Source of the DNA: Patescibacteria group bacterium
GTDB lineage: Bacteria; Patescibacteriota; Minisyncoccia; Portnoybacterales; UBA2143
Assembly (NCBI GenBank): GCA_018830295.1
Contig: JAHJSM010000001.1
Location: 386,203-450,202, forward strand
DNA: 64,000 bases
Reading direction: 5' to 3'
Part shown: positions 14,486 through 34,833 of the stretch, one piece after another
Layout: every line of letters starts with the position of its first letter
How positions within the stretch are numbered: position 1 is the stretch's first letter
The notes under the pieces: model-generated
Told to the model about the DNA's origin: nothing
The model's input: the letters and a program-made list of their open reading frames with translations, nothing else
The model's database searches: none
Position numbers and translations under genes: made by a program

Positions 14486-14513
14486 ATTCATCGTCCCCAA
14501 ACATCTAAAAAAT

Positions 14514-14542
14514 TTGACAAATAACGAAAGATAACATATAAT
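14514..14542 (+). promoter_or_regulatory. perfect-consensus sigma70 promoter (TTGACA-17-TATAAT) for the cassette gene
   Basis: Exact consensus hexamers with a 17-nt spacer. Followed by a ~70-nt leader and an AAAGGAGG Shine-Dalgarno. Confidence 0.6.
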
Positions 14543-14613
14543 TTTACACAAGTAGGGTCTGCTGATTTTCAGCGGAAAATTGTATCTTAAAAATTGGATA
14601 AAGGAGGTTTGTT

Positions 14614-15330
14614 ATGACGACGAGAAAATTTGTTGTTACAGACGAACAAGAGAAGATTTTTCACAAAAGGCGGCGAGAACTGGAAAATAGGTTTTTCAAG
14701 GGTGCCTTAAATCCAGAAGATGTAAATCAAGGCTTACAGATGCTTATTGAGGGGCGAAAAGTAATAGTTTTTAAGGAGAAACCAAACATTCCGGCTTTAA
14801 TTGTTGACTGGCGAAACTTCTACAGCGAACTTGGAATTGAAGCAGATTTTTCAAACCTGCAAATTCCAAACAAGCAAAAAGGTTTTGACCATCTGATTAT
14901 CGTGGCGAAAGAAATGACACCGCAATTGCTCTACGACAAATGCGAAGAACTATTCCCCTGTTGGAAATGGACAGACAAGAATTTGGATGAAATTGTAGAA
15001 TCCGAAAGAACAGCCAAAAATGGCGCCTACGCCATTTGGGTCAGAGACAGAGTTGAAGCGGATGAAGAATTAAAAAATCTATCTGCTGACGACCTAAAAA
15101 ACAAAAACATTCCAGGCATTACTTTGGAAGAGCGACTCATTCACGAGCTCAAGTATTTCAAAGAAACTGGCAAACACTTAGATAGAGATAATGTTACTCT
15201 TTGCGCGGGTTCGCGCTATTCTGATGGCCATGTGCCGGGTGTCGACTGGTACGGTGGCAGGCTCGAGGTCGGCTGGCGCTCTCCTGACCGTCGCGGTGGC
15301 TTTTTGCGCGCTCGTCGGGCAGTTTCTTAA
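14614..15330 (+). CDS. hypothetical protein (238 aa), a repeat-flanked cassette gene replacing the infA…rplQ block
   Basis: Strong Shine-Dalgarno and ATG. No domain I can recognise. The last ~100 nt are conspicuously GC-rich compared with the rest of the window. Confidence 0.5.
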   Translation: MTTRKFVVTDEQEKIFHKRRRELENRFFKGALNPEDVNQGLQMLIEGRKVIVFKEKPNIPALIVDWRNFYSELGIEADFSNLQIPNKQKGFDHLIIVAKEMTPQLLYDKCEELFPCWKWTDKNLDEIVESERTAKNGAYAIWVRDRVEADEELKNLSADDLKNKNIPGITLEERLIHELKYFKETGKHLDRDNVTLCAGSRYSDGHVPGVDWYGGRLEVGWRSPDRRGGFLRARRAVS

Positions 15331-15372
15331 CCTTGTACCTTTTATCTTTTAACCTTTTCAAAAACAAAAAAA

Positions 15373-15404
15373 GCCGCTCTTTATAAAGAAGAGTGGCTTT
15401 TTTT
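15373..15404 (+). terminator. rho-independent terminator
   Basis: GCCGCTCTT-TATAAAG-AAGAGTGGC hairpin followed by TTTTTTT. Confidence 0.7.
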
Positions 15405-15409
15405 ATTCC

Positions 15410-15465
15410 GGGGACTGTCCCCTTGGGATTAAAACGGGGGCTGCCCCCGCAACGGGGGCAGCCCC
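15410..15465. repeat. composite palindromic mini-element, right flank of the cassette
   Basis: GGGGACTGTCCCCTTGGGATTAAAACGGGGGCTGCCCCCGCAACGGGGGCAGCCCCC. Near-identical to the left-flank copy, including the TTGGGATTAAAA linker. Confidence 0.9.
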
Positions 15466-15481
15466 CAAACCCTGCCTTAAA

Positions 15482-17257
15482 CTACTTCTTCCCCTCAATC
15501 TCTTCCCTCATTTTCTCAATAAACTTCCCAACTTCCATCGCGCCGAGATTGCCTTTTTGTCTTTGGCGGGGGGCGATGGTTTTTGATTTTTCTTCTTTTT
15601 CGCCGACGATAAGGAGGTAGGGGATTTTTTGCGTTTCGCCTGCGCGAATTTTTTTGCCAAGCGTTTCGTCGCTCTCGTCAATTTCAACGCGGATATTTTC
15701 TTTCTTTAATTGTTTGGCGACCTCCTTGGCGTATTTGTTGAATTTCTCGCTGATGGGGATAATTCGCGCTTGGACGGGAGCGAGCCAAACAGGGAAGGCG
15801 CCCGCAAAATGTTCAATCAATAACGCTAAAAATCTCTCATAAGACCCAAGGATGGCGCGATGAACCATAACGGGGTTTACTTCTCTGCCTTTCTCGTCGA
15901 TATAAGTCAAATCAAAGCGTTTGGGCGTGGCAAAATCCAACTGAACGGTCGGAATTTGTATTTCTTTGCCCAATGAATCCTTGAACATAAAATCAAGTTT
16001 TGGCCCATATAAAGCGGCTTCACCTTCCATCCTTTTTGCGTCTAATTTCATTTCGTCGGCGACTTCAGCCAAGATTTTTTCACATTTATCCCAATCCTTT
16101 GAATCTCCTATATATTTTTCGGGGTGGTCATAGTCCCTTAACGACAAAGACACCCAATGGTTCTCCCAAAGACCCAAGGCGGTATAGAATTCTTTAATAA
16201 TATTGACCATATTTTTAATTTCATCTTTAACTTGGTCAATTTTACAAAAAGAATGTCCGTCTTCAACTGTAATCGCGTAAACTCTATTTAAGCCACCGAC
16301 TTCCCCCGTTTTTTCGGCTCGGTATTGTTTCTCTGATTCCATATATCTGATCGGTAAATCGCGATAAGACCTTGTCCTTGAAGCGTAAATCTGCGTTTGA
16401 TGAGGGCATTGAACCGGCTTCATGGCGAATTTATGTCCTTTTTCCGAAGTGACATGAAAAAGTTCTTCGCTGAATTTTTTGGCGTGTCCCGAAAGTTCAA
16501 ATAATTCTATTTTGGCCAAATGAGGAGTCATTACTTTTTCAAAACCGTAATTTCTACAAACCGATTCAATATGTTTTTTTAATTCGTCAATTATAATTAC
16601 CCCCTTAGGCGTGAATAAAGGCAATCCTGGACCAACCAAATCGGAAAAAACAAATAAATCTAATTCTTTGCCTAATTTTCGATGGTCTCTCTTTTTCGCT
16701 TCTTCCACCATCGCTTGATATTCGTCCAATTCTTTTTTGCTTTCAAAGGCGATGCCGTAAATCCGCGTCAGCATTTTATTTTTTTCGTCGCCTCTCCAAT
16801 AAGCGCCGGCGATTTTCGTTAATTTAAAAGTGTCTAATTTAATTTCTTTAGTTGAAGAAACATGAGGGCCAAGACAAAGGTCAGTGAAGTCGCCGGTCTT
16901 GTAGATAGTGACCTTTTCTAAATCTTGAATCAATTCCACCTTATACGGCTGTTTTAATTTTTTGAATAATTTAATTGCTTCTTCAGCGTTTAATTCTTCT
17001 TTTTCAAATTTTACGCCTCTTTGAATTAGTCCTCTCATCGCTTTTTCTATCTTAGGCAGGTCATCAGGGGACAGTCCCTGCTTTGCGGGGACTGTCCCCG
17101 TAAAATCTGTCCCCGTAAAATCTATATCATAATAAAATCCGTTTTCAATAATTGGACCAATGCCAAACTTCGCCTCCGGATAAAGTTTTTGAACAGCCGC
17201 GGCGAGAATATGAGCCAAAGAATGGCGAATGATTTCAATTTTTAGTAGTTTAAACAT
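15482..17257 (-). CDS. thrS: threonyl-tRNA synthetase carrying an in-frame palindromic-element insertion
   Basis: Class II motifs and the editing-domain HxxxH. The repeat at 17067-17099 is translated as …DFTGTDFTGTVPAKQG…. Confidence 0.9.
   Translation of the reverse strand: MFKLLKIEIIRHSLAHILAAAVQKLYPEAKFGIGPIIENGFYYDIDFTGTDFTGTVPAKQGLSPDDLPKIEKAMRGLIQRGVKFEKEELNAEEAIKLFKKLKQPYKVELIQDLEKVTIYKTGDFTDLCLGPHVSSTKEIKLDTFKLTKIAGAYWRGDEKNKMLTRIYGIAFESKKELDEYQAMVEEAKKRDHRKLGKELDLFVFSDLVGPGLPLFTPKGVIIIDELKKHIESVCRNYGFEKVMTPHLAKIELFELSGHAKKFSEELFHVTSEKGHKFAMKPVQCPHQTQIYASRTRSYRDLPIRYMESEKQYRAEKTGEVGGLNRVYAITVEDGHSFCKIDQVKDEIKNMVNIIKEFYTALGLWENHWVSLSLRDYDHPEKYIGDSKDWDKCEKILAEVADEMKLDAKRMEGEAALYGPKLDFMFKDSLGKEIQIPTVQLDFATPKRFDLTYIDEKGREVNPVMVHRAILGSYERFLALLIEHFAGAFPVWLAPVQARIIPISEKFNKYAKEVAKQLKKENIRVEIDESDETLGKKIRAGETQKIPYLLIVGEKEEKSKTIAPRQRQKGNLGAMEVGKFIEKMREEIEGKK
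17067..17099. repeat. type A palindromic element inside thrS
   Basis: GGGGACAGTCCCTGCTTTGCGGGGACTGTCCCC, followed by two copies of CCCGTAAAATC. Confidence 0.85.
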
Positions 17258-17260
17258 AAT

Positions 17261-20200
17261 TTACTCTATTACTTTAACACTATCGCAAAGTATCTTCAAG
17301 TCGTCGTTTCGGTCGCTTAGACGACCTCCAAGAAGGACAATCGTCTCTTCTTGCCAGATATCGGGGTTTTTCGCAAGGACGCTTGGGAAAACCAACGCTT
17401 CTATTCGTCCAGTCATATCCTCAATTTCAACAAAAAGCATCGGTTGTCCTGTTCGCGTATTAATTCTTTTAATACGGTTAATAATACCTCCGACTTTAAT
17501 TCTAGTGCCAGCGTGGTTTTTGGAAATACTCTGGCATTTTATAGTTTTTCCCGCCAATTGTTTTTGATACGCTTTAAGGGGGTGTTCGGAAATATACAAA
17601 CCGAGCAGTTCTTTTTCCCAACCAAGCAGTTCTTTTTTTTCCGCGGGAGGGGCGGACGGCAATTTGAAAGACGGCGCGACCATTGGTTGGTCGCTAAACA
17701 AACTGATTTGTCCGTTCGCTTTGTTTTTTTGCGATTCGCGCGCCAAATTTAACATCATTTCAACAGCGTTCAAAAGTTGATTTCTTTCTCCAAAGGCGTC
17801 AAACGCGCCGCATTTAACCAAACTTTCCAGCGATTTCTTATTAAGGTCTTTTGAATTAACTCTTTCCAAGAAATCGGTGATTGATTTGAAGGCGCCGTTT
17901 GTTTTTCTTTCTTCAACAATAGCATGAACGACATTATCACCCACATTTTTGACCGCTTTTAAACCAAACCTAATGATTCTATCTCCCGCCTTGGTGAAAT
18001 CGTGGTTACTTTCATTAATGTCAGGAGGTAAAACTTTGACGCCTATTTGGTTACATTCATCAACCAAAAAAGAAATTCTTTCAATATCGTTTTGGTCGGA
18101 GGTCATGACGGCCGCCATAAATTCGGTTGGGTAGTGGGCTTTAAGATAGGCGGTTTGGTAGCCGATTAGGGCGTAGCAAGTCGCATGGGCGGCGTTAAAT
18201 CCATAGCCAGCGAACGGTTCTACCATCTGCCAGACCTTTTCGGCGATTTGACGGCTGATATTATTCTTAATCATTCCGTCAATCATTTTCTTCGCTTGCT
18301 CGTCCAAAAGTTTCTTAATTTTCTTTCCAACCGCTTTGCGAAGCGTATCCGCCTCAGCCGGAGTAAAAAGCGACAAATCGCGCGCGATTCTCATCAACTG
18401 TTCTTGATATACGCAATTGTGTACAATAATGTTGTTGGCAATAAAATTATGTGTTCCTTCCACTTCTAAATCATAAACATTTTCTTTTCCTTTACGCCGA
18501 ATAGAAGCAATGTCTTCCCATCTCGCATGTTTGTTTTGGCATAGATTTATTAATTCTTTATCTTTAAGGAAATAAGCGATTTTATTCGCTACTTGCAAAT
18601 TTAAGCGATTTTTTATTTTTCCTTCTTTGCCAAAAAATCCCTTTCGACTTATCTTCAAAATATTTGAGAGAGATCGTTGCGAAATGGAATATTTTTTTTG
18701 ATATTCAATAATTTTTTTAAGAAACGGTTTTCTCGGAACAAATTCCTTGCAATCTTCTATTGGTCGCTTTAAATATTCAGCAAGTCGTTTTTTCTTATCA
18801 GTTATCATTAGATGGCCTATTTGATTATAGAATTCTCGCAAATTGTAAATAATTATCCGATAAGATTGTATCATCTCATCGCGCTGGTTTTTATATTTTT
18901 CCACTCTGTAGATATGACTGTTGATGCCTAATTTTAATAAAAGAGTTTGGAGATCGTAAATAATTCTTTTGGAAATCGCGGTTAGATAGGCGGATTTTAG
19001 CGATATCCCGCCATCGCAGTCCCAAAAAGTCGCTAAAAACGCCGCGATACATTGATTATCTAATTCAAAGACAAATTTTGGTATAAATTTGTCAACTGAC
19101 TTTTTGCCGCCTTTTTTATCTTTCAACCCCAACTCTCTCATCCATTCCAACAAACTATTAGGTTGATGGTATTTGGTGGTAATTTTCTTTGATGGATTGG
19201 CGCGCTTGACGCCTCTAATATGTTCGCTGAATGTGATTTTTAGATTATCAAAGGCGTTAGCGCGTTTTTTGAAATCGTTTAATATTTTTTCGTCTTTATT
19301 AACTAAATAGCACGAATTATGGTTTGACAGAGCGCCGTCGGCGATTAAATATGCCAAAACCTTGAGTTTGTCTTCGTTGAATTTCTTTATTCCGGAAAAA
19401 AGTTTTTTAGGGGTCATGATAAAGTCGCCCTTTTCCAGATTTTTTAATTTTTTCCATCCATCCGGAGTTAAAAATTCATGGTCGGCAGTAGCTTTGATTT
19501 GTTTTCCTGTTCGCAATCGAATTTCATAAACATTTTTTATCCCGTTAATAAATTTATTAATAATTTTCTTTTTGACGAAAGATTTTCCGTTCCATGATTG
19601 AACATAAAGTTGCTTAGAAGAACCAATCGCTTCGTCTATGCGCAATATTCCGCCAGGATTTGCTTCTTGGACAAAAGAGTCGCCAGTAACACAAACGCCG
19701 TAAGTGTTTTTTAGGATTGGTTCAAGGAGTGGGTGGATGTATCTGACTTCTTTTAGTCCATGCTTGCGGGCGATGAAGTCGGGGATAAATTCCATTGGAC
19801 CGGGGCGGTAAAGCGCGACCATAGCGACAATATCCTCAAATTGGGTTGGCTTTAATTCTCTTAAATATCTCTTCATTCCGTTTGATTCCAATTGGAAGAC
19901 GCCAGTCGTGTTTGCTTCCTGAAAGACCTTGAATGTTTCTTCGTCGTCCATGGGGATATTAGCCAAATCAATATCTTTTCCGATTAATTCTTTAATTTGT
20001 CGAAGCGCGTTTTGAATAATCGTCAAAGTTTTTAACCCGAGAAAATCCATTTTTAAGAGGCCTAATTGTTCAATCGCGTGCATTTCATATTGTGTCACGA
20101 TCGTTTGGTCATCTTTGCCGGAGCGTTGGCAGGGAACCATATCATCAAGCGGTTCTTTCGTAATCACAACCCCGGCAGCGTGGGTTGAGGCGTGGCGGAC

Positions 20201-21697
20201 AACCCCTTCAAGTTTCATCGCCATATCAATCAGCCGTTTAATTTGCGGGTCTGACTCGTACGCTTTGTGAAGTTCTTGCGATTCATAAACGGCCTCTTTG
20301 AGCGACAAGCCAAAGGGAACCATTTTCGCCGTTTGGTCGCAAACGATGTAAGGGTAATCAAGGGCGCGTCCGACATCGCGGATAGAGCCGCGCGCCGCCA
20401 TCGTCCCAAAAGTAATAATTTGGGCGACATGGTTTTGCCCATATTTTTTCGCGACATATTCAATGACTTCGTTGCGGCGGTCGTCGGCGAAATCCAAGTC
20501 AATATCAGGCATTGAAACGCGCTCGGGATTTAAAAACCGTTCAAAAAGCAAATTGTATTTAAGCGGGTCAATTTCTGTAATGCCAAGCAAAAAGGCGATA
20601 AGCGAGCCCGCGGCTGAACCCCTGCCTGGGCCGACTCCGATTCCTTGCTCCTTCGCCCAGTCCACGAAATCACAGACGATCAGGAAATATGAAGCAAAAC
20701 CCATTTTGTTGATGATTTTCAATTCGTAATCAAGCCGTTCTATAATCTCTTTGCTTGTTCCGTCCGGATAGCGGGTCTTCAATTCTTGGCGGCAAGTTTT
20801 TTCCAAAACGCCGTCGGGCGTTTCTCCTTTGGGAACTTCAAAAGAGGGGAGTTGAATTGTATCAAGGACAAATCCAAAATCGCACTGCTGGACAATTTTT
20901 TGGGTATTAGAAATCGCGTCAGGCGTGTCTTTGAAATCCGCGACCATTCGCTCAATCGGCCGCAAGGAAAAATCGTTTTCTTTCATAGAGAGACGGTTTC
21001 CATCGTCCATTTTCTTGTCCATTTGGATGCTCATCAAAACATCCTGCGCTTCGGCGTCTTCGGGTTTGATATAGTGAACATCGTTCGTCGCGACCAAGGG
21101 GATATTGTTTTTTCGCGCGATTTTAATTATTCCATCGTTGGCGATTCTTTGTTCAGGTAAATCAGGATGGTTTTGGATTTCTAAATAGAAATTGCCCGCG
21201 CCAAATATTTCCTGATATTCAAGCGCCAATTTTTCCGCCTCGTCCAAGTGGCCGTTGATAATTGTCCGAGGAATTTCTCCGACAATACAGGCGGAAAGGG
21301 CGATTAACCCTTTGCTATGTTTTTTAAGAAGTTCTTTGTCAACGCGCGGCTTGTAATAGAAGCCCTCTAAATACGCTTTGGTCGTCAGTTTAACTAAATT
21401 GCGATAGCCCTCTTCGTTTTTAACCAACAAAACCAAGTGATACGATTTATTATCAATATTCGGCCTTTTTTGGAACATTCCATTGGGCGCAATATACATT
21501 TCGTTTCCTAAAATTGGACGAATTCCTCTCTTTTTCGCTTCCCGATAAAATTCAACCAGCCCATACATAGAGCCATGGTCGGTTAAAGCGATAGAAGGCA
21601 TCTTCAACTCCTGACACATATCCAACAAAGGCCCGATTTTAGCGAGCCCGTCCAAAAGAGAATAGTGCGAGTGAACATGAAGATGAGTGAAGGACAT
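17261..21697 (-). CDS. dnaE: DNA polymerase III alpha subunit interrupted by an intein
   Basis: PHP domain (HLHVHSHYSLLDG) and pol III alpha core. A 426-aa intein sits between …KNTYGV and CVYQEQLMRIA…, the conserved TYG(I/V)-[C/L]YQEQ site. Confidence 0.9.
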   Translation of the reverse strand: MSFTHLHVHSHYSLLDGLAKIGPLLDMCQELKMPSIALTDHGSMYGLVEFYREAKKRGIRPILGNEMYIAPNGMFQKRPNIDNKSYHLVLLVKNEEGYRNLVKLTTKAYLEGFYYKPRVDKELLKKHSKGLIALSACIVGEIPRTIINGHLDEAEKLALEYQEIFGAGNFYLEIQNHPDLPEQRIANDGIIKIARKNNIPLVATNDVHYIKPEDAEAQDVLMSIQMDKKMDDGNRLSMKENDFSLRPIERMVADFKDTPDAISNTQKIVQQCDFGFVLDTIQLPSFEVPKGETPDGVLEKTCRQELKTRYPDGTSKEIIERLDYELKIINKMGFASYFLIVCDFVDWAKEQGIGVGPGRGSAAGSLIAFLLGITEIDPLKYNLLFERFLNPERVSMPDIDLDFADDRRNEVIEYVAKKYGQNHVAQIITFGTMAARGSIRDVGRALDYPYIVCDQTAKMVPFGLSLKEAVYESQELHKAYESDPQIKRLIDMAMKLEGVVRHASTHAAGVVITKEPLDDMVPCQRSGKDDQTIVTQYEMHAIEQLGLLKMDFLGLKTLTIIQNALRQIKELIGKDIDLANIPMDDEETFKVFQEANTTGVFQLESNGMKRYLRELKPTQFEDIVAMVALYRPGPMEFIPDFIARKHGLKEVRYIHPLLEPILKNTYGVCVTGDSFVQEANPGGILRIDEAIGSSKQLYVQSWNGKSFVKKKIINKFINGIKNVYEIRLRTGKQIKATADHEFLTPDGWKKLKNLEKGDFIMTPKKLFSGIKKFNEDKLKVLAYLIADGALSNHNSCYLVNKDEKILNDFKKRANAFDNLKITFSEHIRGVKRANPSKKITTKYHQPNSLLEWMRELGLKDKKGGKKSVDKFIPKFVFELDNQCIAAFLATFWDCDGGISLKSAYLTAISKRIIYDLQTLLLKLGINSHIYRVEKYKNQRDEMIQSYRIIIYNLREFYNQIGHLMITDKKKRLAEYLKRPIEDCKEFVPRKPFLKKIIEYQKKYSISQRSLSNILKISRKGFFGKEGKIKNRLNLQVANKIAYFLKDKELINLCQNKHARWEDIASIRRKGKENVYDLEVEGTHNFIANNIIVHNCVYQEQLMRIARDLSLFTPAEADTLRKAVGKKIKKLLDEQAKKMIDGMIKNNISRQIAEKVWQMVEPFAGYGFNAAHATCYALIGYQTAYLKAHYPTEFMAAVMTSDQNDIERISFLVDECNQIGVKVLPPDINESNHDFTKAGDRIIRFGLKAVKNVGDNVVHAIVEERKTNGAFKSITDFLERVNSKDLNKKSLESLVKCGAFDAFGERNQLLNAVEMMLNLARESQKNKANGQISLFSDQPMVAPSFKLPSAPPAEKKELLGWEKELLGLYISEHPLKAYQKQLAGKTIKCQSISKNHAGTRIKVGGIINRIKRINTRTGQPMLFVEIEDMTGRIEALVFPSVLAKNPDIWQEETIVLLGGRLSDRNDDLKILCDSVKVIE
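18416..19693 (-). mobile_element. DnaE intein with a LAGLIDADG homing-endonuclease domain
   Basis: Starts CVTGDS… and ends …IVHN, followed by C+1. Internal LAYLIADG and FWDCDGG dodecapeptide motifs. Confidence 0.75.
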
Positions 21698-21773
21698 AAA
21701 ATTAGTATACCACCTCCACCCCCTCCCGCAAAGATTGACATTTCTTGAAAAATGGTTGTTTGGGGACTGAATT

Positions 21774-21853
21774 AAAAAGGTCAGACCTTTCAAAACGACA
21801 TTCTCGCGACTGCTTATTATTTAGTGACAAACTAATGGAAAGGTCTGACCTTT
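21774..21853. promoter_or_regulatory. two copies of the 15-bp palindrome AAAGGTCWGACCTTT in the divergent dnaE/ligA control region
   Basis: AAAGGTCAGACCTTT at ~21776-21790 and AAAGGTCTGACCTTT at ~21839-21853. The first copy extends as AAAGGTCAGACCTTTCAAAACGACATTCTCGCGAC. Confidence 0.5.
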
Positions 21854-21912
21854 TTAATTTAACACACGAGGTCTAACACACTATTACTCCAAAATTGATT
21901 TCTTGAAAATAG

Positions 21913-24286
<2,374 letters not shown>

Positions 24287-24290
<4 letters not shown>

Positions 24291-25735
24291 ATCTCAATCA
24301 ACTTACAATTAAAGAAGCTCATCAAGGCCTTTTGAAGAAGGAATTTTCTTCGGTGGAACTGACCGAGGCGGTTTTGGGGCAGATTAAAAGGCGTAATCAA
24401 GAAATTAACGCCTATTTGGTCTTGACCGAAGAAATGGCGTTGACGCAAGCCAAAAAGGTGGACAAAATGATTGCTAATAACGAAGAAATTGGTCTTTTGG
24501 CGGGCATTCCTGCCGCGATTAAGGATAATATCATGATTGACGGCGTTCAGTGTACGGCCGCCTCAAAAATTTTGGAAAATTACATCGCGCCTTATGACGC
24601 GACAGTTATTAAAAAACTTAAAAAACAAGGCGCGGTTTTTGTTGGCAAAACAAATTTGGATGAATTCGCGATGGGGTCTTCAACCGAGAATTCGGCGTTT
24701 GGTCCGACTAAAAATCCGCGCGATTTGAGTCGTGTTCCAGGCGGAAGTTCGGGCGGGTCCGCGGCGGCTGTCGCCGATGACCAGTGTATTTACGCGTTGG
24801 GTTCTGACACAGGCGGTTCTATCCGCCAGCCAGCTTCTTTTTGCGGGGTGGCCGGATTAAAGCCGACTTATGGCTCGGTTTCTCGTTATGGGCTCATCGC
24901 TTTCGCTTCTTCTTTGGACCAAATCGGACCGCTCGCGAAAACGACCGAGGATTGTCAGATTATTTTTGAGGCGATTAATGGTAGAGACGAAATGGACGCG
25001 ACGAGTTTTAATTTCGGAAACCAAGTTTCCGCCGGAAACTCGGTTTCCAATCTTAAGATAGGAATTCCTAAGGAATATTTTGTGGCGGGGATTGACTCGG
25101 CAGTGGAGGAGGCGGTGAGGGGGGCAATTTCTCAATACGAGAAAATGGGATTTGAAATTGTGGAAATAAGTTTGCCTCACACCGAATACGCCTTGCCCGT
25201 TTACTATATTATTATGCCCGCCGAAGCGTCTTCTAATTTAGCCCGTTATGATGGAATTAAATACGGGCTTTCGGAAATTGACAAAGATTTATTGGGTGGA
25301 TACTTAAAAACGCGACAAAAGGGATTTGGCGATGAAGTCAAAAGAAGAATTATGCTCGGGACTTATGTTTTGTCGGCTGGCTATTACGACGCTTATTATC
25401 TTAAAGCGCAAAAAGTGAGAACTTTAATTAAGAACGACTTCTTGAAGGCGTTTGAAAAAGTAGATGTTTTAATCACGCCGACCGCGCCCACGCCCGCTTT
25501 CAAAATCGGGCAGAAAATAGCCGACCCTGTTTCAATGTATCTTTCGGATATTTACACAATTTCCGCGAACTTAGCTGGTTTACCCGCTATCTCTATTCCT
25601 ATTAAAAGCAACAGTCCTTTGCCGATAGGCATGCAAATTATAGGTAAACAATTTGGAGAAAATGATATTTTTAAAATAGCGCGCGCTTATGAGAATTTGG
25701 GGACAGTCCCCGCAACAGGGACTGTCCCCAAATAA
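24287..25735 (+). CDS. gatA: Asp/Glu-tRNA amidotransferase subunit A, C-terminus encoded by a palindromic element
   Basis: Amidase signature GGSSGGSAAAVA. The last residues …LGTVPATGTVPK come from the repeat at 25698-25729. Confidence 0.9.
25698..25729. repeat. type A palindromic element at the gatA 3' end
   Basis: GGGGACAGTCCCCGCAACAGGGACTGTCCCC. Confidence 0.85.
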
Positions 25736-25741
25736 AAATTT

Positions 25742-26275
25742 ATGCTTACAAAACTTCTTAAAATTCAGGAAAAAATCAATGACTACTTTCTTTCTTCCGA
25801 CTGGGAGGAAAATCTTTTGATTTTGAAAGTAATTTCTGTTCTTATTTCTGCTTTGCTCCTTTTTATTATTTTCTTCTTAACATTCCGATTAAGAAAAAGC
25901 GTTAAAAAATCATTGGAATTAGTAGCGGGAAGCGTTTCGTCCGCGGGCAAATCAACGAAAGTTGTCAGCAAAGAATGGGAATCGGTTTTGGAAAAAATAG
26001 AAAAGAAAGATGAGAGCAGTTATAAGCTGGCAGTGATTGAAGCGGATAAAATTTTGGACGACTTGCTCAAAAAAATCGGCTATGTCGGAGATGATATGGG
26101 GGAGCGGCTTAAAAAAATTACCGCCGCCCAACTATCCAACATTGACGAGGTCTGGCAAGCGCACCGCGTCCGCAACCGCGTCGTCCATGAACCCGATTTC
26201 CAACTAACCCGTCCCCAAGCCAAAAGAGCGATAGAAATCTATCAAAAGGCGTTAGAGGACTTGGAGATGATATAA
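25742..26275 (+). CDS. hypothetical membrane protein
   Basis: ORF with one hydrophobic helix. No recognised domain. Confidence 0.4.
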   Translation: MLTKLLKIQEKINDYFLSSDWEENLLILKVISVLISALLLFIIFFLTFRLRKSVKKSLELVAGSVSSAGKSTKVVSKEWESVLEKIEKKDESSYKLAVIEADKILDDLLKKIGYVGDDMGERLKKITAAQLSNIDEVWQAHRVRNRVVHEPDFQLTRPQAKRAIEIYQKALEDLEMI

Positions 26276-26278
26276 ATG

Positions 26279-26352
26279 CGGGAGCGACCGGGCTCGAACC
26301 GGCGACCTTCTGCGTGACAAGCAGATGCTCTAACCAACTGAGCTACGCCCCC
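26279..26352 (-). tRNA. tRNA-Asp (GUC)
   Basis: Cloverleaf read from the minus strand: GGGGGCG acceptor, D-arm GCUCAGUUGGUUAGAGC, anticodon loop UUGUCAC, T-arm GGUUCGAGCC. CCA is not encoded. Confidence 0.9.
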
Positions 26353-26382
26353 ATTGTTTTAGACCCTTCGCAGGTTCTAAAG

Positions 26383-26454
26383 TAGCAGGAGTGGGGATCG
26401 AACCCACCATAGGTCGCTTATGAGACGACCTCAGACACCAGTCTGCTTCCTGCC
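26383..26454 (-). tRNA. tRNA with a CAU anticodon (elongator Met or Ile2-like) and an atypical anticodon arm
   Basis: Acceptor GGCAGGA/UCCUGCU, T-arm GUGGGUUCGAUCCCCAC. Nine nt separate the 5-bp anticodon stem halves (UCUCAUAAG). That implies a sixth U·G pair with a CUCAUAA loop, or an expanded loop. Confidence 0.65.
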
Positions 26455-26482
26455 TCGGGTGGGTTTTAAATTAATAACCTTG

Positions 26483-26789
26483 TTGCGGGGGCAGGATTCG
26501 AACCTGCAACCTCAAGGTTCTTTGCGATTTCTATTTATAGAAGAAATCTGTATTAGCCATTTGTTTCCAAATGGAATGGACTATCCCATCATCTTTTTGC
26601 CTAAAAAAGATGTTCCCATTATAGTCTCTGAACCTTCCCTAATATGTATTAGGGCTTGGCTGCCGATTGCCGAGGGTTATATAACCCTGACGGTTTTCCA
26701 GCAATTTCGGGAATTTTCCACAAGATGTCGCCATCCTGCGCCACAATTTTATTTATGGGCCTCGCGAGCTGCCATTGCTCCACCCCGCG
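26483..26789 (-). tRNA. initiator tRNA-fMet (CAU) interrupted by a putative group I intron in the anticodon loop
   Basis: Exon 1 (26755-26789) is CGCGGGGUGGAGCAAUGGCAGCUCGCGAGGCCCAU. Exon 2 (26483-26519) is AACCUUGAGGUUGCAGGUUCGAAUCCUGCCCCCGCAA. The first 14 nt and the 3' strand CCCCGCA-A match E. coli tRNAfMet, including the C1·A72 mismatch. Confidence 0.75.
26520..26754 (-). other. putative 235-nt group I intron inside the tRNA-fMet gene
   Basis: 5' exon ends in U and can pair with an intron GUGG guide (a U·G P1). The intron ends in G. It contains a CAGAGACUAUAAUGGG stretch with the P7-region 'AGACUA' hallmark. No ORF. Confidence 0.6.
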
Positions 26790-26794
26790 TTGCT

Positions 26795-26823
26795 ATTATA
26801 GGGGATAATTTGTTTGATAGCAA
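26795..26823 (-). promoter_or_regulatory. promoter (TTGCTA-17-TATAAT) driving the tRNA-fMet/intron gene
   Basis: The -10 box lies 6-7 nt upstream of the mature tRNA 5' end on the minus strand. Confidence 0.55.
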
Positions 26824-26886
26824 GTTTTTTATGTCCACTTGCCCCAAAAGGTGAGAAGTGGTAAAATACACCCAATACAATAGGGT

Positions 26887-27276
26887 ATGAATTTATCTGT
26901 TTATTTATCAGGGTTGTTTATTGCCGTTTTATTGGCGAGCGCCTGTTTGGCGGCTATTTTAATTTATCTTAGTCCAACCCCTGTCAGCCCCTCTATTCTC
27001 GTCCTATTTTACTTAAGTTTATCCATCGCTTCCACGGGAATTTTCACTTTGACAGGCTTGTTTATTAGATGGATTTCCCACAGAAAAGGATTCTTTTTAT
27101 CGGAAAATCGCGTTTTTAGGCAATTGGAAATTTCTTTCAGGCAGGGCTTGCTTTTATCGGTTATTCTCGTCTCCGCTCTAATTCTGCAAAGCCAAAGAGC
27201 GTTGGCGTGGTGGCATTTAATTTTGTTAGTAGGTATAGTTGGGATAGCGGAATGGTGGTTAGGACATAGGACATAA
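26887..27276 (+). CDS. hypothetical small membrane protein
   Basis: Three or four predicted TM helices. No recognised domain. Confidence 0.4.
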   Translation: MNLSVYLSGLFIAVLLASACLAAILIYLSPTPVSPSILVLFYLSLSIASTGIFTLTGLFIRWISHRKGFFLSENRVFRQLEISFRQGLLLSVILVSALILQSQRALAWWHLILLVGIVGIAEWWLGHRT

Positions 27277-27284
27277 AATTTTTT

Positions 27285-28256
27285 ATGCTTAATCAACTTA
27301 AACAAAAAGCCCTTCAAGAGATAAGACAAGCAAAAGACATTAAGGCGCTTGAAGAGATATATCGTCAATATTTTGGCCGCAAGGGCGAATTGACGGAGAT
27401 TTTGCGTTCTTTGAAGGATTTGACGGAGGAAGAGAGAAAAGAAAAAGGGCGTCTCGCTAATCAAATTAAAAAGGAATTAGAGGAAGCGGTTAAAGAAAAA
27501 AGGGAAAAATTTTCCGTCAAAGGCGGGCAAGATAAAAAATGGATTGATGTAACTGCGCCTGGGGCTAAAGTTCCCGATGGTCATCTTCATCCGATTACTC
27601 TTGTTCAAAGACAGATAGAAGAAATTTTCCAATCAATGGGTTTTACGGTCGCCGAAGGTCCAGAAGTGGAGAGCGAGCATTATAATTTTGATGCTCTTAA
27701 TGTTCCCAAAGACCACCCCGCGCGAGACATTCAGGACACTTTTTGGCTGAAGGATTTTGATTTGCTTTTAAGGACGCACACCTCAAATATTCAAGCTAGA
27801 TACATGGAAAAGAACAATCCGCCTTTAAGAATTATCGCGCCCGGCCGTTGTTTTCGCCACGAGGCGACTGATGCTTCTCATGATGTTCAATTTAATCAAG
27901 TAGAGGGTTTAATGATCGGCCAAGATGTTTCGGTGGCGGATTTTAAGGGAGTAATGGAGGAATTTTTAAAAAGGTTTTTTAGCCAAGATATTGAAATGCG
28001 TTTGCGACCCGGATATTTTCCTTTTGTTGAGCCGGGCTTTGAAATTGACGCGAGAAGAAAAGGGCAAAAGTGGCTAGAACTAATGGGGGCGGGGATGGTT
28101 CATCCAAATGTTTTTAAAGCGGTTGGATATATCCCAAGCAAATGGCAGGGCTTTGCTTTTGGAATGTGTCCAGATCGTTTGGCAATGCTGAAATACAAAA
28201 TTGATGATATCAGATTATTCTACGCGAGCGATTTAAGATTTTTAAAACAATTCTAA
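27285..28256 (+). CDS. pheS: phenylalanyl-tRNA synthetase alpha subunit
   Basis: Class II core motifs (…FRHEATDASH…, …GAGMVHPNV…). Confidence 0.95.
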   Translation: MLNQLKQKALQEIRQAKDIKALEEIYRQYFGRKGELTEILRSLKDLTEEERKEKGRLANQIKKELEEAVKEKREKFSVKGGQDKKWIDVTAPGAKVPDGHLHPITLVQRQIEEIFQSMGFTVAEGPEVESEHYNFDALNVPKDHPARDIQDTFWLKDFDLLLRTHTSNIQARYMEKNNPPLRIIAPGRCFRHEATDASHDVQFNQVEGLMIGQDVSVADFKGVMEEFLKRFFSQDIEMRLRPGYFPFVEPGFEIDARRKGQKWLELMGAGMVHPNVFKAVGYIPSKWQGFAFGMCPDRLAMLKYKIDDIRLFYASDLRFLKQF

Positions 28257-30238
28257 TGAAGGTCTCATACAATTGGCTACAATCTTTTTTTGATAAAAAA
28301 CTTCCCAGTCCGGAAAAACTGGCGGATTTGCTGTCTTCGCATTCCTTTGAAACAGAGGTGATTGAACGGGTGGGTAGTGATTACGCTTTGGATGTGGATG
28401 TTTTGCCGAACCGGGCGCATGATTGCCTTGGGCATTTAGGTGTCGCGCGGGAAATTGGGGCGATCATAAATTCAAAACTCAAAATTCAAAACTCGCGCCG
28501 TCGCCAAAGCGGCTATGGCGCGTCGGCGACAAAATTAAAAATCAAAACGCAAAACAAAGATATTAAAGATTTTCTTAAAATTAAAGTCGGTGATAAAAAA
28601 CTTTGTCCGCGTTATACAGCTCGGATGGTGGTTGATGTTAAGGTTGGTCCTTCGCCAGAATGGATTCAAGAACGGCTCAAAGTTTGTGGTTTAAAGCCGA
28701 TTAACAACATCGTGGACACCGTTAATTATGTTATGTTGGAAACAGGACAGCCCATGCACGCTTTTGATTTTGACAAAATAGCGGGTGAGCCAAAAACTCT
28801 CATTATCCGCCGAGCCAAAAAGGGAGAGAAGATCATTTCTTTAGATAACGAAACATACGAATTAGACGAAAATATTTTAGTGATTGCGGACGAGAAGAGC
28901 CCTCTTTGTATTGCCGGCATGAAGGGCGGGAAGGACGCGGAAATTGATAAGGAGACAAAAAGAATTGTTTTGGAGGCAGCTAATTTTGATTCGCGAATTA
29001 TTCGGAAGGCGTTTAATCAATTAAAATTAAGAACGGACGCTTCGTGGCGTTTTGAAAACGGGCTTGACCCAAATTTAACCTCATCGGCGATGGATATGGC
29101 GGTTGCTTTAATTGATGGACAAATTCTTAAAGGAGTTGTTGATATTTATCCGAACAAAGTTAAGCCGAAGACGATAAAATTGGACGCGAAAAAAGTCAGG
29201 AGTTTGTTAGGAGTTAATATTTCAGATAAAGAAATAATTGCTATTTTGAAAAAGTTAAGTTTCGTTAAGATAGGGACAGTCCCTCTGAAAGAGGGACTGT
29301 CCCTATCAGTCACCGTTCCGACGGCCCGTTTGGACATTTCTATCCAAGAGGATTTAATTGAGGAGGTTGGACGTCTTTATGGATTTGAAAAAATTCCAAG
29401 CCGTTTGCCTTTGGCCGCTCTCATCCCTCCCAAGCGAAATGATGATTTGATTTACCAGAATAAAATTAAAGATATTTTAGTTAATCTTGGTTTTAGCGAG
29501 GCGCTTAATTATTCATTGATTGGCGACGCGGAAATTGAATTAGCCAATCCAATTAGCCAGGAGCAGAAATATTTGCGTCCTTCTTTAGCGCTTAATTTAT
29601 TAAAAAACATTGAAAGCAATAAAAGATATTTTAATGAAGTGAGGTTATTTGAAATTGGTCGGGTTTTTGAAAGGGATAACGACAAGGTAATTGAAAAGAA
29701 AAAATTGGGCGCCGCTTTGTTCCCATCTGACTTTTATCGCCTCAAAGGAATTATTGAGACATTATTGAATAAAATGCAAATTAGCGATGTTTGGTATGAG
29801 GATGAATTAGAAAGAGATGATTTAAAGAGAGCGAAAGTGATAGTGGGAAATGATTTATTAGGTTGGATTGGAGACAATATTTTCGAACTTGATTTTGAAA
29901 AAATAGTTGAATTGGCGACAGAAGAAAGAATTTATTCGCCTCCTTCAAAATATCCAGCCGTGGTCAGAGATGTCGCTTTGTTGGTTGAGCCGGGAACAAA
30001 GATAGTTGAAGTGATGAATTTAATTAATACAGCGGGCGGTTCGTTAATCAGCGATGTTGATTTGTTTGATATGTACGAAGGAGAGGAAATCCCAGATGGC
30101 AAAAAAAGTTTGGCTTTCCGCGTTATTTATCAAGCGGACGACCACACCTTAACCGACAAAGAAGTCAACGCCTTACAGGAGAAAGTTATGAAAGCGTTGG
30201 AAGATGAAGGAGGGTGGGAAGTGCGGAAACAGAAATAG
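28256..30238 (+). CDS. pheT: phenylalanyl-tRNA synthetase beta subunit, short form, with an in-frame palindromic-element insertion
   Basis: B3/4 and B5 domains, and the FDxY anticodon-binding C-terminus. The repeat at 29274-29304 is translated as …IGTVPLKEGLSLSVTVP…. Confidence 0.9.
   Translation: MKVSYNWLQSFFDKKLPSPEKLADLLSSHSFETEVIERVGSDYALDVDVLPNRAHDCLGHLGVAREIGAIINSKLKIQNSRRRQSGYGASATKLKIKTQNKDIKDFLKIKVGDKKLCPRYTARMVVDVKVGPSPEWIQERLKVCGLKPINNIVDTVNYVMLETGQPMHAFDFDKIAGEPKTLIIRRAKKGEKIISLDNETYELDENILVIADEKSPLCIAGMKGGKDAEIDKETKRIVLEAANFDSRIIRKAFNQLKLRTDASWRFENGLDPNLTSSAMDMAVALIDGQILKGVVDIYPNKVKPKTIKLDAKKVRSLLGVNISDKEIIAILKKLSFVKIGTVPLKEGLSLSVTVPTARLDISIQEDLIEEVGRLYGFEKIPSRLPLAALIPPKRNDDLIYQNKIKDILVNLGFSEALNYSLIGDAEIELANPISQEQKYLRPSLALNLLKNIESNKRYFNEVRLFEIGRVFERDNDKVIEKKKLGAALFPSDFYRLKGIIETLLNKMQISDVWYEDELERDDLKRAKVIVGNDLLGWIGDNIFELDFEKIVELATEERIYSPPSKYPAVVRDVALLVEPGTKIVEVMNLINTAGGSLISDVDLFDMYEGEEIPDGKKSLAFRVIYQADDHTLTDKEVNALQEKVMKALEDEGGWEVRKQK
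29274..29304. repeat. type A palindromic element inside pheT
   Basis: GGGACAGTCCCTCTGAAAGAGGGACTGTCCC. Confidence 0.85.
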
Positions 30239-30240
30239 TT

Positions 30241-33200
30241 ATGGTTAAAAAAAATAATAACAATTCAAATTACCAAGCAAAAGACATTTATGTCTTAGAA
30301 GGGCTTGATCCCGTGCGGCGGCGTCCAGGGATGTATATCGGTTCAACTGGTATTGAAGGTGTTCATCACCTTATTTGGGAAGTGGTTGACAACGCTTTAG
30401 ATGAAGCGATGGCTGGTTTTTGCGACGAAATAGAGGTTGTTCTTTTACCTGATAATAGGGTCAAAGTAACGGACAATGGGCGAGGGATTCCAGTTGACAA
30501 GCATCCGCAGACGAAAAAGTCGGCCTTGGAAACAGTCATGTGCACTCTTCACGCGGGCGGCAAATTCGGCGGGGAGTCATATAAAATCGCAGGCGGGTTG
30601 CACGGAGTCGGTGTTTCAGTTGTGAACGCGCTTTCCGTGATGACGCGGGCGGAAGTTTGCCGCGATGGTTTTTTATATGTTCAGGAATATGAACGGGGCA
30701 AGCCCAAAAAAGATGTTAAAAAAGAAGGCAAATGCGGCAGAAACGGAACGACGATCATTTTTGAACCAGACAAAGAAATTTTTCCAAAAATTGAATTTAA
30801 GTGGTCTAAGATATTAAAGCGATTGCGGCAGCAGGCGTATTTAACCAAGGGGATTAAAATAGTCGTCAAAGACGAAAGAAAAGAGCCGCGCAAAAGTTAT
30901 TCTTTCTATTTTGAGGGCGGAATTGTTTCTTATATTGGATATTTAAATCGCGGCGAAGAAACAAAACATAGTAATATTTTTTATGTTTCCGCGGAAAAGC
31001 AGGATGTGATGGTAGAGGCGGCTTTTCAATACACAGACGATATTCAAGGATATGAAGAAAGTTTTGCTAATAATATTTATACGGGCGAGGGCGGAATGCA
31101 TTTAACTGGCTTCAAAACGGCTTTAACAAGAACGCTTAACGATTACGCGCGGAAGAATGGTTTTTTAAAAGAGTCAGATGAAAATTTAAGCGGCGATGAT
31201 GTGAGAGAAGGGCTGACGGCGGTGATAAGCGTTAAATTAAGAGAGCCGCAATTTGAAGGGCAGACCAAGGCGAAGTTGGGCAATACCGAGGCGCGGACGG
31301 CGACTGACGCGATTGTTTCAGACGCGTTGGAAGAATTTTTAGAAAAGCATCCCCAAGATGCAAAGGAGATTATGGCGAAATGTCTCTTGGCGGCAAAAGC
31401 GCGCCGAGCGGCTAAAGCGGCGCGAGAAACGGTCATCCGAAAGGGCGTTTTGGAAGGCATGGCTTTGCCAGGGAAATTAGCCGACTGCTCCAATCGCAAC
31501 CCCGAAGATTCAGAAATCTACATAGTGGAAGGCGATTCCGCCGGAGGTTGTTTCGACGGAAAAACCAAAATTGCTTTAACTGATGGACGAAATTTAGATT
31601 TTATAGAATTAATTAAGGAGCAGAAAAGAGGAGAAAAGAATTATTGTTATACAATCAAAAAAGATGGCTTGATTGGTATTGAGCAAATTAGAAATGTCAG
31701 AAAAACAAAAAAGAACGCGGAGGTTATTAAAGTAATTCTTGATAACAACGAGGAAATTATTTGCACGCCCGACCACAAGTTTATGACAAGGGATGGTAAA
31801 TACAAACAAATAAAAGATTTAACTAATAAAGATTCTTTAATGCCGCTTTACAGAAAACTTTCTAAAAAAGAGAAGCGAATTACTATTGAAGGATATGAAA
31901 TGGTTTTAAGCCCAGAATTAAAAGACGGAAAGGAAAGATGGATTTTTACCCATCTTTTGGCTGATGAATATAATTTAAGAAATAAAATATATTCCAATAA
32001 AATCAATGTTCATAAGCATCATATTGATTTTAATAAATTAAATAATAATCCAGATAACATTAAGCAGATGGATAAAGATGAACACCTAAAACATCATTGT
32101 CGGATGTTGGAATTTACTATTCATCGAGAGGATGTAAAAGATAAAGTAAGAAAGATACATCAAACGACAGAATTTAGAGAAAAAATTAGAGCGACGATGA
32201 CTACTCCAGAAATGAAAAAAATGCTTAGTCGGAGAGCAAAAAAACAATGGCAAAATAAGGAATATAAGCAGTATATGGTTGAAAAGTTTTTGGAGTTTTA
32301 TAACAATTCACCTGATTACAGGGAAAAGAATAATAAATTATTGAATGATGTTCAAAAGAAGTATTGGGGCGATAAATCAAATCGACTCAAACAGGCGAGA
32401 CGCGTCAGAAAATATTTTAAATCAAATCCAGAGAAAAAAGAAGAACTTTCTTTGCTTGCCAAAAAGCAATGGTTAGACGCGGAGATGTTAACTTGGCGAA
32501 GTCAAAAAACAAAAGAGCAATGGACGGATGAATTTAGAAAAAAGCGGCAAAAGGCGTATAGCAAGACCTATTATAGACACACGATAGAATTTCTAAAAAA
32601 GGTCTATGAGAAATATGGTTCTTTTCGTGAATATGATTACGAAAGAACATTGATTAGAAATAATAATCTTTTGAAGTTCAATACTTTTTGCGCTCGGTTT
32701 TTTAACGGCGACAAAGAAGCGGTTTATGAGGCGGTGAAAAACTATAATCATAAAATCAAAAGGATAATTAAACTTAGAAAAAAAATTGATGTTTATGATT
32801 TGGAGGTTAAAGGGACCCATAATTTTGCTTTGGCTTCCGGCGTTTTTGTCCATAACAGCGCCAAACAGGGGAGGGATAGGTCTTTTCAGGCGATTTTGCC
32901 TTTGCGAGGGAAAATTCTTAATGTGGAAAAGGCGCGGTTGAGTCGAGCGCTTACTTCAACTGAAATTAAAACGCTTGTGATCGCGCTGGGGGCGGCGATT
33001 GCCGAGGAATTTGATATTGAAAAATTGCGATACCACCGCATTATTATTATGACGGACGCCGATGTGGACGGCTCGCATATCGCCACTTTGCTTTTGACTT
33101 TGTTCTTCCGATATTTCCCGCAAATTATAGACCGCGGTTATTTGTATGTCGCTCAACCGCCCCTTTATCGCCTGCAGAAAGGAAAAAGGGTTGAATATTG

Positions 33201-33468
33201 CTATACAATTGAAGACAGAGATGAAATTGTTTCTTCAATGGGCAATGAGGGCGTTAATATCCAACGATACAAGGGTTTGGGAGAAATGAATCCAAGCCAA
33301 TTATGGGAAACAACGATGGATCCCGCCAATCGGGTTATGAAACAAATTATGGTTGAAGACGCCAAAGAAGCGGACAAGATTTTTGATATTCTAATGGGAG
33401 ATGAAGTCGCGCCCAGAAAGAAATTTATCCAAACCCACGCGAAGAAAGCGAAAAATTTGGATATTTAA
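30241..33468 (+). CDS. gyrB: DNA gyrase subunit B interrupted by an intein
   Basis: GHKL ATPase, transducer and TOPRIM domains. A 436-aa intein splits EGDSAGG | SAKQGRDR. Confidence 0.9.
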   Translation: MVKKNNNNSNYQAKDIYVLEGLDPVRRRPGMYIGSTGIEGVHHLIWEVVDNALDEAMAGFCDEIEVVLLPDNRVKVTDNGRGIPVDKHPQTKKSALETVMCTLHAGGKFGGESYKIAGGLHGVGVSVVNALSVMTRAEVCRDGFLYVQEYERGKPKKDVKKEGKCGRNGTTIIFEPDKEIFPKIEFKWSKILKRLRQQAYLTKGIKIVVKDERKEPRKSYSFYFEGGIVSYIGYLNRGEETKHSNIFYVSAEKQDVMVEAAFQYTDDIQGYEESFANNIYTGEGGMHLTGFKTALTRTLNDYARKNGFLKESDENLSGDDVREGLTAVISVKLREPQFEGQTKAKLGNTEARTATDAIVSDALEEFLEKHPQDAKEIMAKCLLAAKARRAAKAARETVIRKGVLEGMALPGKLADCSNRNPEDSEIYIVEGDSAGGCFDGKTKIALTDGRNLDFIELIKEQKRGEKNYCYTIKKDGLIGIEQIRNVRKTKKNAEVIKVILDNNEEIICTPDHKFMTRDGKYKQIKDLTNKDSLMPLYRKLSKKEKRITIEGYEMVLSPELKDGKERWIFTHLLADEYNLRNKIYSNKINVHKHHIDFNKLNNNPDNIKQMDKDEHLKHHCRMLEFTIHREDVKDKVRKIHQTTEFREKIRATMTTPEMKKMLSRRAKKQWQNKEYKQYMVEKFLEFYNNSPDYREKNNKLLNDVQKKYWGDKSNRLKQARRVRKYFKSNPEKKEELSLLAKKQWLDAEMLTWRSQKTKEQWTDEFRKKRQKAYSKTYYRHTIEFLKKVYEKYGSFREYDYERTLIRNNNLLKFNTFCARFFNGDKEAVYEAVKNYNHKIKRIIKLRKKIDVYDLEVKGTHNFALASGVFVHNSAKQGRDRSFQAILPLRGKILNVEKARLSRALTSTEIKTLVIALGAAIAEEFDIEKLRYHRIIIMTDADVDGSHIATLLLTLFFRYFPQIIDRGYLYVAQPPLYRLQKGKRVEYCYTIEDRDEIVSSMGNEGVNIQRYKGLGEMNPSQLWETTMDPANRVMKQIMVEDAKEADKIFDILMGDEVAPRKKFIQTHAKKAKNLDI
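31549..32856 (+). mobile_element. GyrB intein with an HNH-type homing endonuclease
   Basis: Starts CFDGKTKIALTDG and ends …FVHN, followed by S+1. Internal HKHHIDFNKLNNNPDNIKQMDKDEHLKHH (HNH motif). Confidence 0.8.
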
Positions 33469-34749: not shown

Positions 34750-34756
34750 TGTCTTT

Positions 34757-34787
34757 GGGGACAGTCCCCGCAACGGGGACTGTCCCC
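34757..34787. repeat. type A palindromic element
   Basis: GGGGACAGTCCCCGCAACGGGGACTGTCCCC, between rplK and the dCMP deaminase gene. Confidence 0.9.
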
Positions 34788-34833
34788 AAATCATTTGTTT
34801 TTTAACAATTTAGGAAATAAGGAGGGAAATATA

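Follow-up and report, generated by a model that had tools for sequence, protein, structure and literature searches.

The GyrB intein of Synechocystis sp. PCC 6803, which we take to be the prototype of the allele that sits at the EGDSAGG site and nests an HNH domain, is reportedly the protein in which an HNH endonuclease was first recognised, by Dalgaard and colleagues in 1997. For the alpha subunit of DNA polymerase III (Pol III alpha, encoded by dnaE), Novikova et al. 2016 (PMC4760082) describe in the fingers a hot spot of 75 amino acids (aa) that contains the insertion points a-d and g, point a being that of the cyanobacterial split DnaE intein. The present analysis concerns a stretch of 64,000 nucleotides (nt) of contig JAHJSM010000001.1 (assembly GCA_018830295.1, a Patescibacteria group bacterium), hereafter the window, in which both genes are interrupted. 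The open reading frames (ORFs) of dnaE (minus strand) and gyrB (30214-33468, plus strand) are the two longest of the region, and each is broken by a long block without any match to the host family. We hold with high confidence that both blocks are genuine class-1 inteins, with a homing-endonuclease domain nested in each. The GyrB intein has the same architecture as the known inteins of the EGDSAGG site, with which it shares host, site, Cys1, Ser+1, HNH motif and helical repeat region, and it differs from them only in its sequence (best match 62% identity) and in its host lineage. The DnaE intein has its placement in the finger domain in common with the hot-spot inteins, whereas it is contiguous and full-length, with a LAGLIDADG domain, where the cyanobacterial DnaE intein is split.

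The host of the minus-strand insert was identified as DnaE by the NCBIfam model PRK06826 (1425 bits for a cut-off of 1260), and the Pfam domains PHP, DNA_pol3_alpha, finger, HHH_6 and OB were found in the ORF. The frame given by the ORF caller reaches a TTG at 21793 (17261-21793, 1510 codons); the start is nevertheless likely to be the ATG at 21697 (M33), since, counted from M33, the PHP domain starts at residue 5 and since a public protein of 1478 aa (P0167) carries its intein at the same position, 669-1094. Across the intein this protein is 100% identical to the DnaE of the window. The original prediction had described a 426-aa intein at a conserved TYG/YQEQ site (slashes mark junctions throughout). 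Once the ORFs and the junction peptides were located, the coordinates and the length proved exact and the site is indeed conserved, while the junction itself was slightly misplaced, as the valine that precedes the intein and the Cys-Val that follows are host residues: the precursor reads NTYGV/CVTGDS...NIIVHN/CVYQEQ. The residues needed for splicing are all present, namely C1, the T-A-D-H (ATADH) of block B, the terminal H-N and C+1. The Pfam family Intein_splicing (PF14890) matches with an E-value of 5.8e-27 (94.8 bits, curated cut-off 35.8), and the NCBIfam profiles intein_Nterm (TIGR01445) and intein_Cterm (TIGR01443) with 30.2 bits (cut-off 24.5) and 28.1 bits (cut-off 15.6), respectively. 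The DnaB-with-intein model PRK07773 of NCBIfam covers residues 1-426 of the intein (E 1.4e-66), and the Ssp DnaB mini-intein 1mi8 matches it at both ends (E 6e-21). Among solved structures, the Ssp and Npu DnaB and the Mtu RecA mini-inteins come closest in sequence to its splicing domain (1mi8, 4o1r, 2imz), although they come from other hosts and sites and their solved forms lack an endonuclease domain. After in silico deletion of the insert, DnaE is a protein of 1052 aa that aligns gap-free with residues 553-824 of E. coli Pol III alpha.

The same picture was obtained for GyrB, whose NCBIfam model TIGR01059 matches the precursor with 916.6 bits (cut-off 882.4), positions 1-639 of the model extending over residues 11-1075. 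The start of this gene is ambiguous: the European Nucleotide Archive (ENA) call is a GTG at 30214, with an overlap of 25 nt with the end of pheT, as against the ATG at 30241, which lies just upstream of the point where the GyrB family model starts matching. In exact-sequence look-ups the GTG-start product was on record, on the ENA metagenome contig ERZ27247117 k141_539904 (744,622 bp), and neither the DnaE precursor nor the M10-start GyrB was. The insert had been predicted as a 436-aa intein at EGDSAGG/SAKQGRDR, which is exact: the junctions are IVEGDSAGG/CFDGKTK...GVFVHN/SAKQGRDRSF, with C1, the T-P-D-H (CTPDH) of block B, the terminal H-N and S+1. Intein_splicing matches with an E-value of 1.6e-21 (77.1 bits), intein_Nterm with 45.6 bits and intein_Cterm with 28.6 bits, so that the curated Pfam and NCBIfam profiles are above their cut-offs for both inserts. 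The spliced GyrB (in silico) is 639 aa long and gap-free relative to residues 411-528 of the solved GyrB 8s7k_B. Careful alignment bears out the canonical C1 and terminal HN that had been predicted at both inteins, neither insert aligns to native DnaE or GyrB, and both spliced proteins run without a gap across the junction. Taken together, the profile matches, the splice residues and a host that is colinear once the insert is removed are those of class-1 inteins, whose Hint fold was found as well.

As regards the nested nucleases, that of the DnaE intein is the plainer case. The LAGLIDADG motifs announced in the original prediction are there, LAGLIDADG_3 of Pfam (PF14528) matching with an E-value of 1.2e-17 (64.3 bits, cut-off 22.5). 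Conservation was read from 14 aligned DnaE inteins of the same site, 28-56% identical overall, in whose numbering, which counts 12 extein residues, the Thr and His of block B are T81 and H84. In the ...ADG of the first motif the Gly does not vary at all and the Asp is kept in at least 90% of the sequences; each of the two motifs has a conserved or invariant acidic residue, as in the single-chain LAGLIDADG family.

The HNH motif predicted for the GyrB intein is visible at intein residues 154-183, but Pfam alone is insufficient here, HNH_3 matching the central domain only weakly (E 0.08, 13 bits for a cut-off of 24.8), and the assignment was therefore built on PHROGs and on evidence from the family as a whole. 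Three phage protein families of PHROGs named 'HNH endonuclease' match the 301-aa central segment over the motif (E 2.6e-8, 1.9e-5 and 2.7e-4), and HNH_3 is matched at E <= 0.01 by 16 of 40 members of the GyrB intein family, the best at 1.1e-5. In the family alignment (mean column identity 46%), conservation is 90% or more at the motif residues H157, H158, D160, N165-167, P168, N170, H179 and H183. In the AlphaFold model, a strand at 154-158, a strand at 171-175 and a helix at 176-190 form a beta-beta-alpha unit, and the best match of the modelled intein outside the Hint fold is I-HmuI. These PHROGs matches, the HNH_3 matches of relatives, the near-invariant motif and the model support the view that the GyrB intein nests an HNH endonuclease domain. 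I-HmuI (PDB 1u3e) is the intron-encoded HNH homing endonuclease of phage SPO1, a nicking enzyme; it is free-standing, whereas the HNH domain of GyrB is nested in an intein, and the two have no detectable sequence similarity.

The least ordinary aspect of the two inteins is the helical module with Trp-centred repeats that is built on this HNH core. Past the HNH motif the model is all-helical for about 200 residues (194-397); Pfam has no family for this region, and the repeats in it include LSRRAKKQWQNKEY and LSLLAKKQWLDAEM. When four candidate repeats were compared with hhalign, one strong independent pair was obtained (the W234 against the W308 repeat, probability 97%, E 4.5e-11) together with two weak pairs (P ~5-7e-4); a second strong score was rejected because the segments compared overlap. 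Searched against the PDB sequences, a profile restricted to the HNH-plus-helical domain retrieved nothing even at E 10, and that of the GyrB family alignment retrieved GyrB and topoisomerase chains only, since its extein columns are dominant. The repeats occur also in the portal protein of a T4-like phage (L097, 508-4989), which has a LAGLIDADG intein and, as the carrier of the repeats, a second intein of the HNH type, and in a free-standing homing endonuclease of the GIY-YIG type (L098, 2719-3477), on viral contigs. This spread suggests a modular DNA-binding repeat common to several nuclease classes, and the helical region of the GyrB intein is presumed to be its DNA-recognition module. That the region, of the pattern ...PE.+..LS..AK.QW.[DN].[ED]Y..., represents an undescribed nuclease-associated modular DNA-binding domain is a tentative proposal, to which we give somewhat less than even weight; if true, it would account for the way in which long targets are read by HNH inteins and could be a portable DNA-recognition scaffold.

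Table 1. Coordinates of the two precursor genes, their inteins and other features of the window. Positions of protein-coding features on the minus strand are given from low to high.
Feature	Position	Strand	Remarks
dnaE (Pol III alpha) precursor gene	17261-21697	minus	1478 aa from ATG 21697; stop included
DnaE N-extein part	19694-21697	minus	668 aa, C-terminal end ...EPILKNTYGV
DnaE intein	18416-19693	minus	426 aa, CVTGDS...NIIVHN; ORF residues 701-1126
DnaE intein block B (TxxH), GKQIKATADHEFLT	19466-19507	minus	Thr and His invariant among same-site inteins
DnaE intein first LAGLIDADG motif, LKVLAYLIADGAL	19328-19366	minus	Pfam LAGLIDADG_3
DnaE intein second LAGLIDADG motif, IAAFLATFWDCDGGI	19004-19048	minus	D-x-D-G invariant among same-site inteins
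DnaE intein blocks F and G, VYDLEVEGTHNFIAN NIIVHN	18416-18478	minus	followed by +1 Cys; H-N-C invariant among same-site inteins
DnaE C-extein part and stop	17261-18415	minus	384 aa, CVYQEQLMRIA...
Reconstructed intein-less dnaE junction DNA			ATCCTAAAAAACACTTACGGCGTT / TGCGTATATCAAGAACAGTTGATG
gyrB precursor gene	30241-33468	plus	1075 aa from ATG 30241
GyrB intein	31549-32856	plus	436 aa, CFDGKT...GVFVHN, followed by +1 Ser; ORF residues 446-881
GyrB intein block B (TxxH), EEIICTPDHKFMT	31750-31788	plus	T73, P74 and H76 at least 90% conserved in the family alignment
GyrB intein HNH catalytic motif, VHKHHIDFNKLNNNPDNIKQMDKDEHLKHH	32008-32097	plus	intein residues 154-183
GyrB intein all-helical region past HNH	32125-32748	plus	Trp-centred repeats (...LS..AKKQW.n.eY...); structure model
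GyrB intein blocks F and G, VYDLEVKGTHNFALAS GVFVHN	32791-32856	plus	invariant V415, D417, N425-L428, G431, F433-N436
Reconstructed intein-less gyrB junction DNA			GTGGAAGGCGATTCCGCCGGAGGT / AGCGCCAAACAGGGGAGGGATAGG
tRNA-Met(CAU) exon 1	26789-26755	minus	
tRNA-Met(CAU) intron	26754-26520	minus	group I
tRNA-Met(CAU) exon 2	26519-26482	minus	
GC-rich palindromes	14429-14489, 15410-15470, 25696-25733, 34754-34791, 41747-41784, 49379-49416		
GC-rich palindromes, continued	49872-49906, 54904-54938, 56052-56092, 61090-61130, 29268-29304, 54307-54343		

Both inteins are members of populous and already recognised allelic families. In a search of protein clusters at 90% identity, 969 proteins match the GyrB intein at E <= 0.001, with E-values down to 2e-166 and identities of 46-62% over the full length for its relatives. 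Among the matches listed, every readable host is GyrB, and the site E[GS][DE]SAGG/C...HN/S[AG]K was found in all 37 matches in which both junctions could be read. The sources are Patescibacteria, DPANN and other archaea, cyanobacteria (Oscillatoriophycideae, Waterburya, Pseudanabaena, Aetokthonos), Chloroflexota and Omnitrophota, and many of these relatives are labelled 'intein-containing DNA gyrase subunit B' at NCBI.

Relatives of the DnaE intein were few by word-indexed search, and 8890 matches were returned by an exhaustive HMMER search. Among the best full-length matches, the junctions of which were read, the site TYG[IV]/C[VIL]YQEQ was found in at least 14 DnaE proteins, each representing a cluster at 50% identity, other matches being DnaB inteins or, in many cases, contiguous DnaE inteins at GFNK/SH. 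A scan of GTDB with one genome per species confirmed 233 same-site DnaE loci, 35-69% identical over the full length, in as many species. The carriers include Candidatus Portnoybacteria (69% identity), Nealsonbacteria and Saccharibacteria, and elsewhere many Chloroflexota, Saprospiraceae and Acidobacteriota as well as, among the Bacteroidota, cultured strains of Hymenobacter and Runella. On E. coli Pol III alpha the site lies in the fingers domain, at I683/I684, 75 residues upstream of the GFNK/SH site (K758/S759), the motif of which is presumably that of the cyanobacterial split DnaE intein. This placement is consistent with the published finger hot spot of Pol III alpha.

Members of both families were also seen in IMG/VR, on contigs that are classed there as viral. 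A GyrB with a same-site HNH intein, 48% identical in the endonuclease domain, is encoded at 1396-4617 of L096 (IMGVR_UViG_3300033145_001746, 98.9 kb), and four further viral-classed contigs (L084-L087) encode DnaE with same-site LAGLIDADG inteins of 29-36% identity. Such contigs may be phage vectors or misclassified cellular DNA.

By analogy with what is established for class-1 inteins and for LAGLIDADG and HNH homing endonucleases, we propose that DnaE and GyrB would each be translated as a single precursor, in which Cys1 would undergo an N-S acyl shift and the nucleophile at +1, which is Cys in DnaE and Ser in GyrB, would attack the thioester by trans-esterification. The terminal Asn would then cyclise with the help of the penultimate His, releasing the intein, and a final acyl shift would leave a normal peptide bond between the exteins. 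Splicing would in this way restore the finger motif ...TYGV-CVYQEQ... of Pol III alpha and the Toprim motif EGDSAGG-SAKQGR of GyrB. Either the free intein or the precursor would act as a site-specific DNase: a two-motif, single-chain LAGLIDADG enzyme in the case of DnaE and, in the case of GyrB, an I-HmuI-like HNH nuclease (beta-beta-alpha-metal) with the helical Trp-repeat region as a putative DNA-binding extension. In homing, the target of the nuclease would be the junction sequence of an intein-less allele, for which the reconstructed DNA is given in Table 1; after the cut, the intein would be copied in by recombinational repair.

The base composition of the inteins differs from that of their hosts, with a guanine-plus-cytosine (GC) content of 33.7% against 44.1% for the exteins in DnaE and of 31.3% against 44.7% in GyrB, both values being lower than those of all 43 other genes of the window (minimum 34.9%). 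The low GC led us to consider a recent horizontal acquisition, which is unsupported, since the GC content at third codon positions of both inteins, although low, lies inside the range of the other genes of the window and since the intein diverges together with its extein. For DnaE, the identities of intein and extein are 68% and 66-75% relative to the closest relative in Portnoybacteria, about 56% and 51-64% relative to other Patescibacteria, and 36-42% and 40-55% relative to other phyla. A long co-divergence fits this pattern better than a recent invasion, and the sequences compared suggest that within Patescibacteria the DnaE intein has mostly been inherited vertically for a long time.

This same parallel of intein and extein identity, which fits a long vertical inheritance without re-invasion, bears on the activity of the nucleases. 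It could be that the inteins splice while one or both endonucleases are inactive, the elements being fixed passengers that are kept because a failure of splicing kills the host. The existence, in the GyrB family, of deletion variants without the HNH motif points the same way, and an intein-less allele of this organism was not seen. Nevertheless the catalytic residues are intact here and near-invariant among relatives that are only 28-68% identical, which argues for purifying selection on the nuclease function, and both intein frames are intact and of the full length typical of their families; we consider the loss of nuclease activity rather unlikely, although it is the rival reading that deserves the most weight. 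The maintenance of the inteins as conditional switches on replication enzymes, sensitive to redox state or stress for example, an idea put forward earlier for inteins that cluster in replisome active sites, appears quite improbable to us. Both inteins do lie in catalytic motifs, the fingers of Pol III alpha and the position right after the EGDSAGG of Toprim, the DnaE intein has Cys at both 1 and +1, and Novikova et al. 2016 (PMC4760082) take such clustering to suggest a function. However, no sequence feature specifically supports regulation, the placement at conserved sites is equally explained by the conservation of homing-endonuclease targets, and full endonuclease domains are retained, as for selfish elements.

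An artefact, whether an assembly chimera or a lineage-specific insertion native to DnaE and GyrB, is the reading to which we give hardly any credence. It could be invoked on account of a contig from a metagenome-assembled genome, JAHJOZ010000043.1, which is 100% identical to the window over 11261-18725 and diverges inside the DnaE intein. In the window, though, the frame and the homology to same-site inteins are continuous through the breakpoint, the intein profile matches are highly significant, the exact gyrB product is on record on the 744,622-bp ENA contig, and the same architecture is present in hundreds of independent genomes. That the window is itself an assembly chimera was rejected on the unbroken homology to other inteins across the breakpoint, and class-1 inteins with nested endonucleases remain the reading that we retain for both inserts. 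As for the diverging contig (GCA_018820055.1, Patescibacteria group bacterium), it departs completely from the window at 18725/18726, its own position 5120/5121, and carries beyond this point recJ and two genes for N6/N4 methyltransferases; in its annotation the 3' part of dnaE figures as a 488-aa 'hypothetical protein' (P0122). It is probably chimeric, a real rearrangement being the alternative.

Between dnaE and gyrB, an initiator-type tRNA-Met(CAU) gene (26482-26789, minus strand) is split by a group I intron, which makes, besides the two inteins, a third self-splicing element within a span of 16 kb. The intron is 235 nt long, ORF-less and inserted after anticodon position 36, and it matches the group I intron family of Rfam (RF00028) with 87.7 bits. 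The gene was missed by the default tRNA scan and found by ARAGORN with introns allowed; spliced in silico, its RNA folds into a clean cloverleaf that shows the mismatch C1xA72, as initiator tRNAs of bacteria typically do. Group I introns in tRNA-fMet are known in Gloeobacter and in Synechocystis PCC 6803 (PMC8450103). A 144-aa ORF on the opposite strand (26420-26854, plus), antisense to the tRNA-Met genes and the group I intron and without any family match, is almost certainly not a gene. No third intein came to light when the ORFs of all six frames of the window were searched by phmmer with the two inteins as queries, a search of limited sensitivity.

Several repeats were also noted in the window. 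GC-rich perfect palindromes (GGGGGCTGCCCCC-N5-GGGGGCAGCCCCC and GGGGACAGTCCCC variants) are dispersed over it, mostly at gene ends and a few inside ORFs, and look like a family of terminator-like hairpins; they lie on both sides of a bacterial type A RNase P RNA (49465-49848, plus strand, Rfam 220 bits). An exact direct repeat of 64 nt (52468-52531 and 53726-53789, spacing 1258 nt) spans the ends and starts of the consecutive genes 51423-52508, 52579-53727 and 53750-56053 and may result from a recent tandem duplication or from gene conversion between paralogues. A 35-nt repeat with 97% identity, which contains the palindrome AAAGGTC-A-GACCTTT, has one copy in the divergent intergenic region of dnaE and ligA (21776-21810) and the other (56503-56537) inside the ORF 56145-58607.

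The identification of the GyrB and DnaE inteins is therefore correct and of an ordinary kind, by which no question is overturned or opened. Its value lies mainly in annotation, as the same DnaE is split or given as 'hypothetical protein' in public records and many records of GyrB relatives are marked as partial, while the recognition of the inteins leads to the correct mature proteins, a Pol III alpha of 1052 aa and a GyrB of 639 aa, in a reduced genome assembled as a single contig of 745 kb. Both inteins are also potential new reagents for splicing and for endonuclease cleavage. For the biology of the organism, the tiny genome of this Patescibacteria bacterium carries at least three self-splicing elements, the two inteins and the group I intron of the tRNA, within 16 kb of housekeeping genes, and the presence of the GyrB intein family in cyanobacteria and archaea, together with the tRNA-fMet introns of cyanobacteria, bears on the circulation of selfish elements among uncultured lineages.

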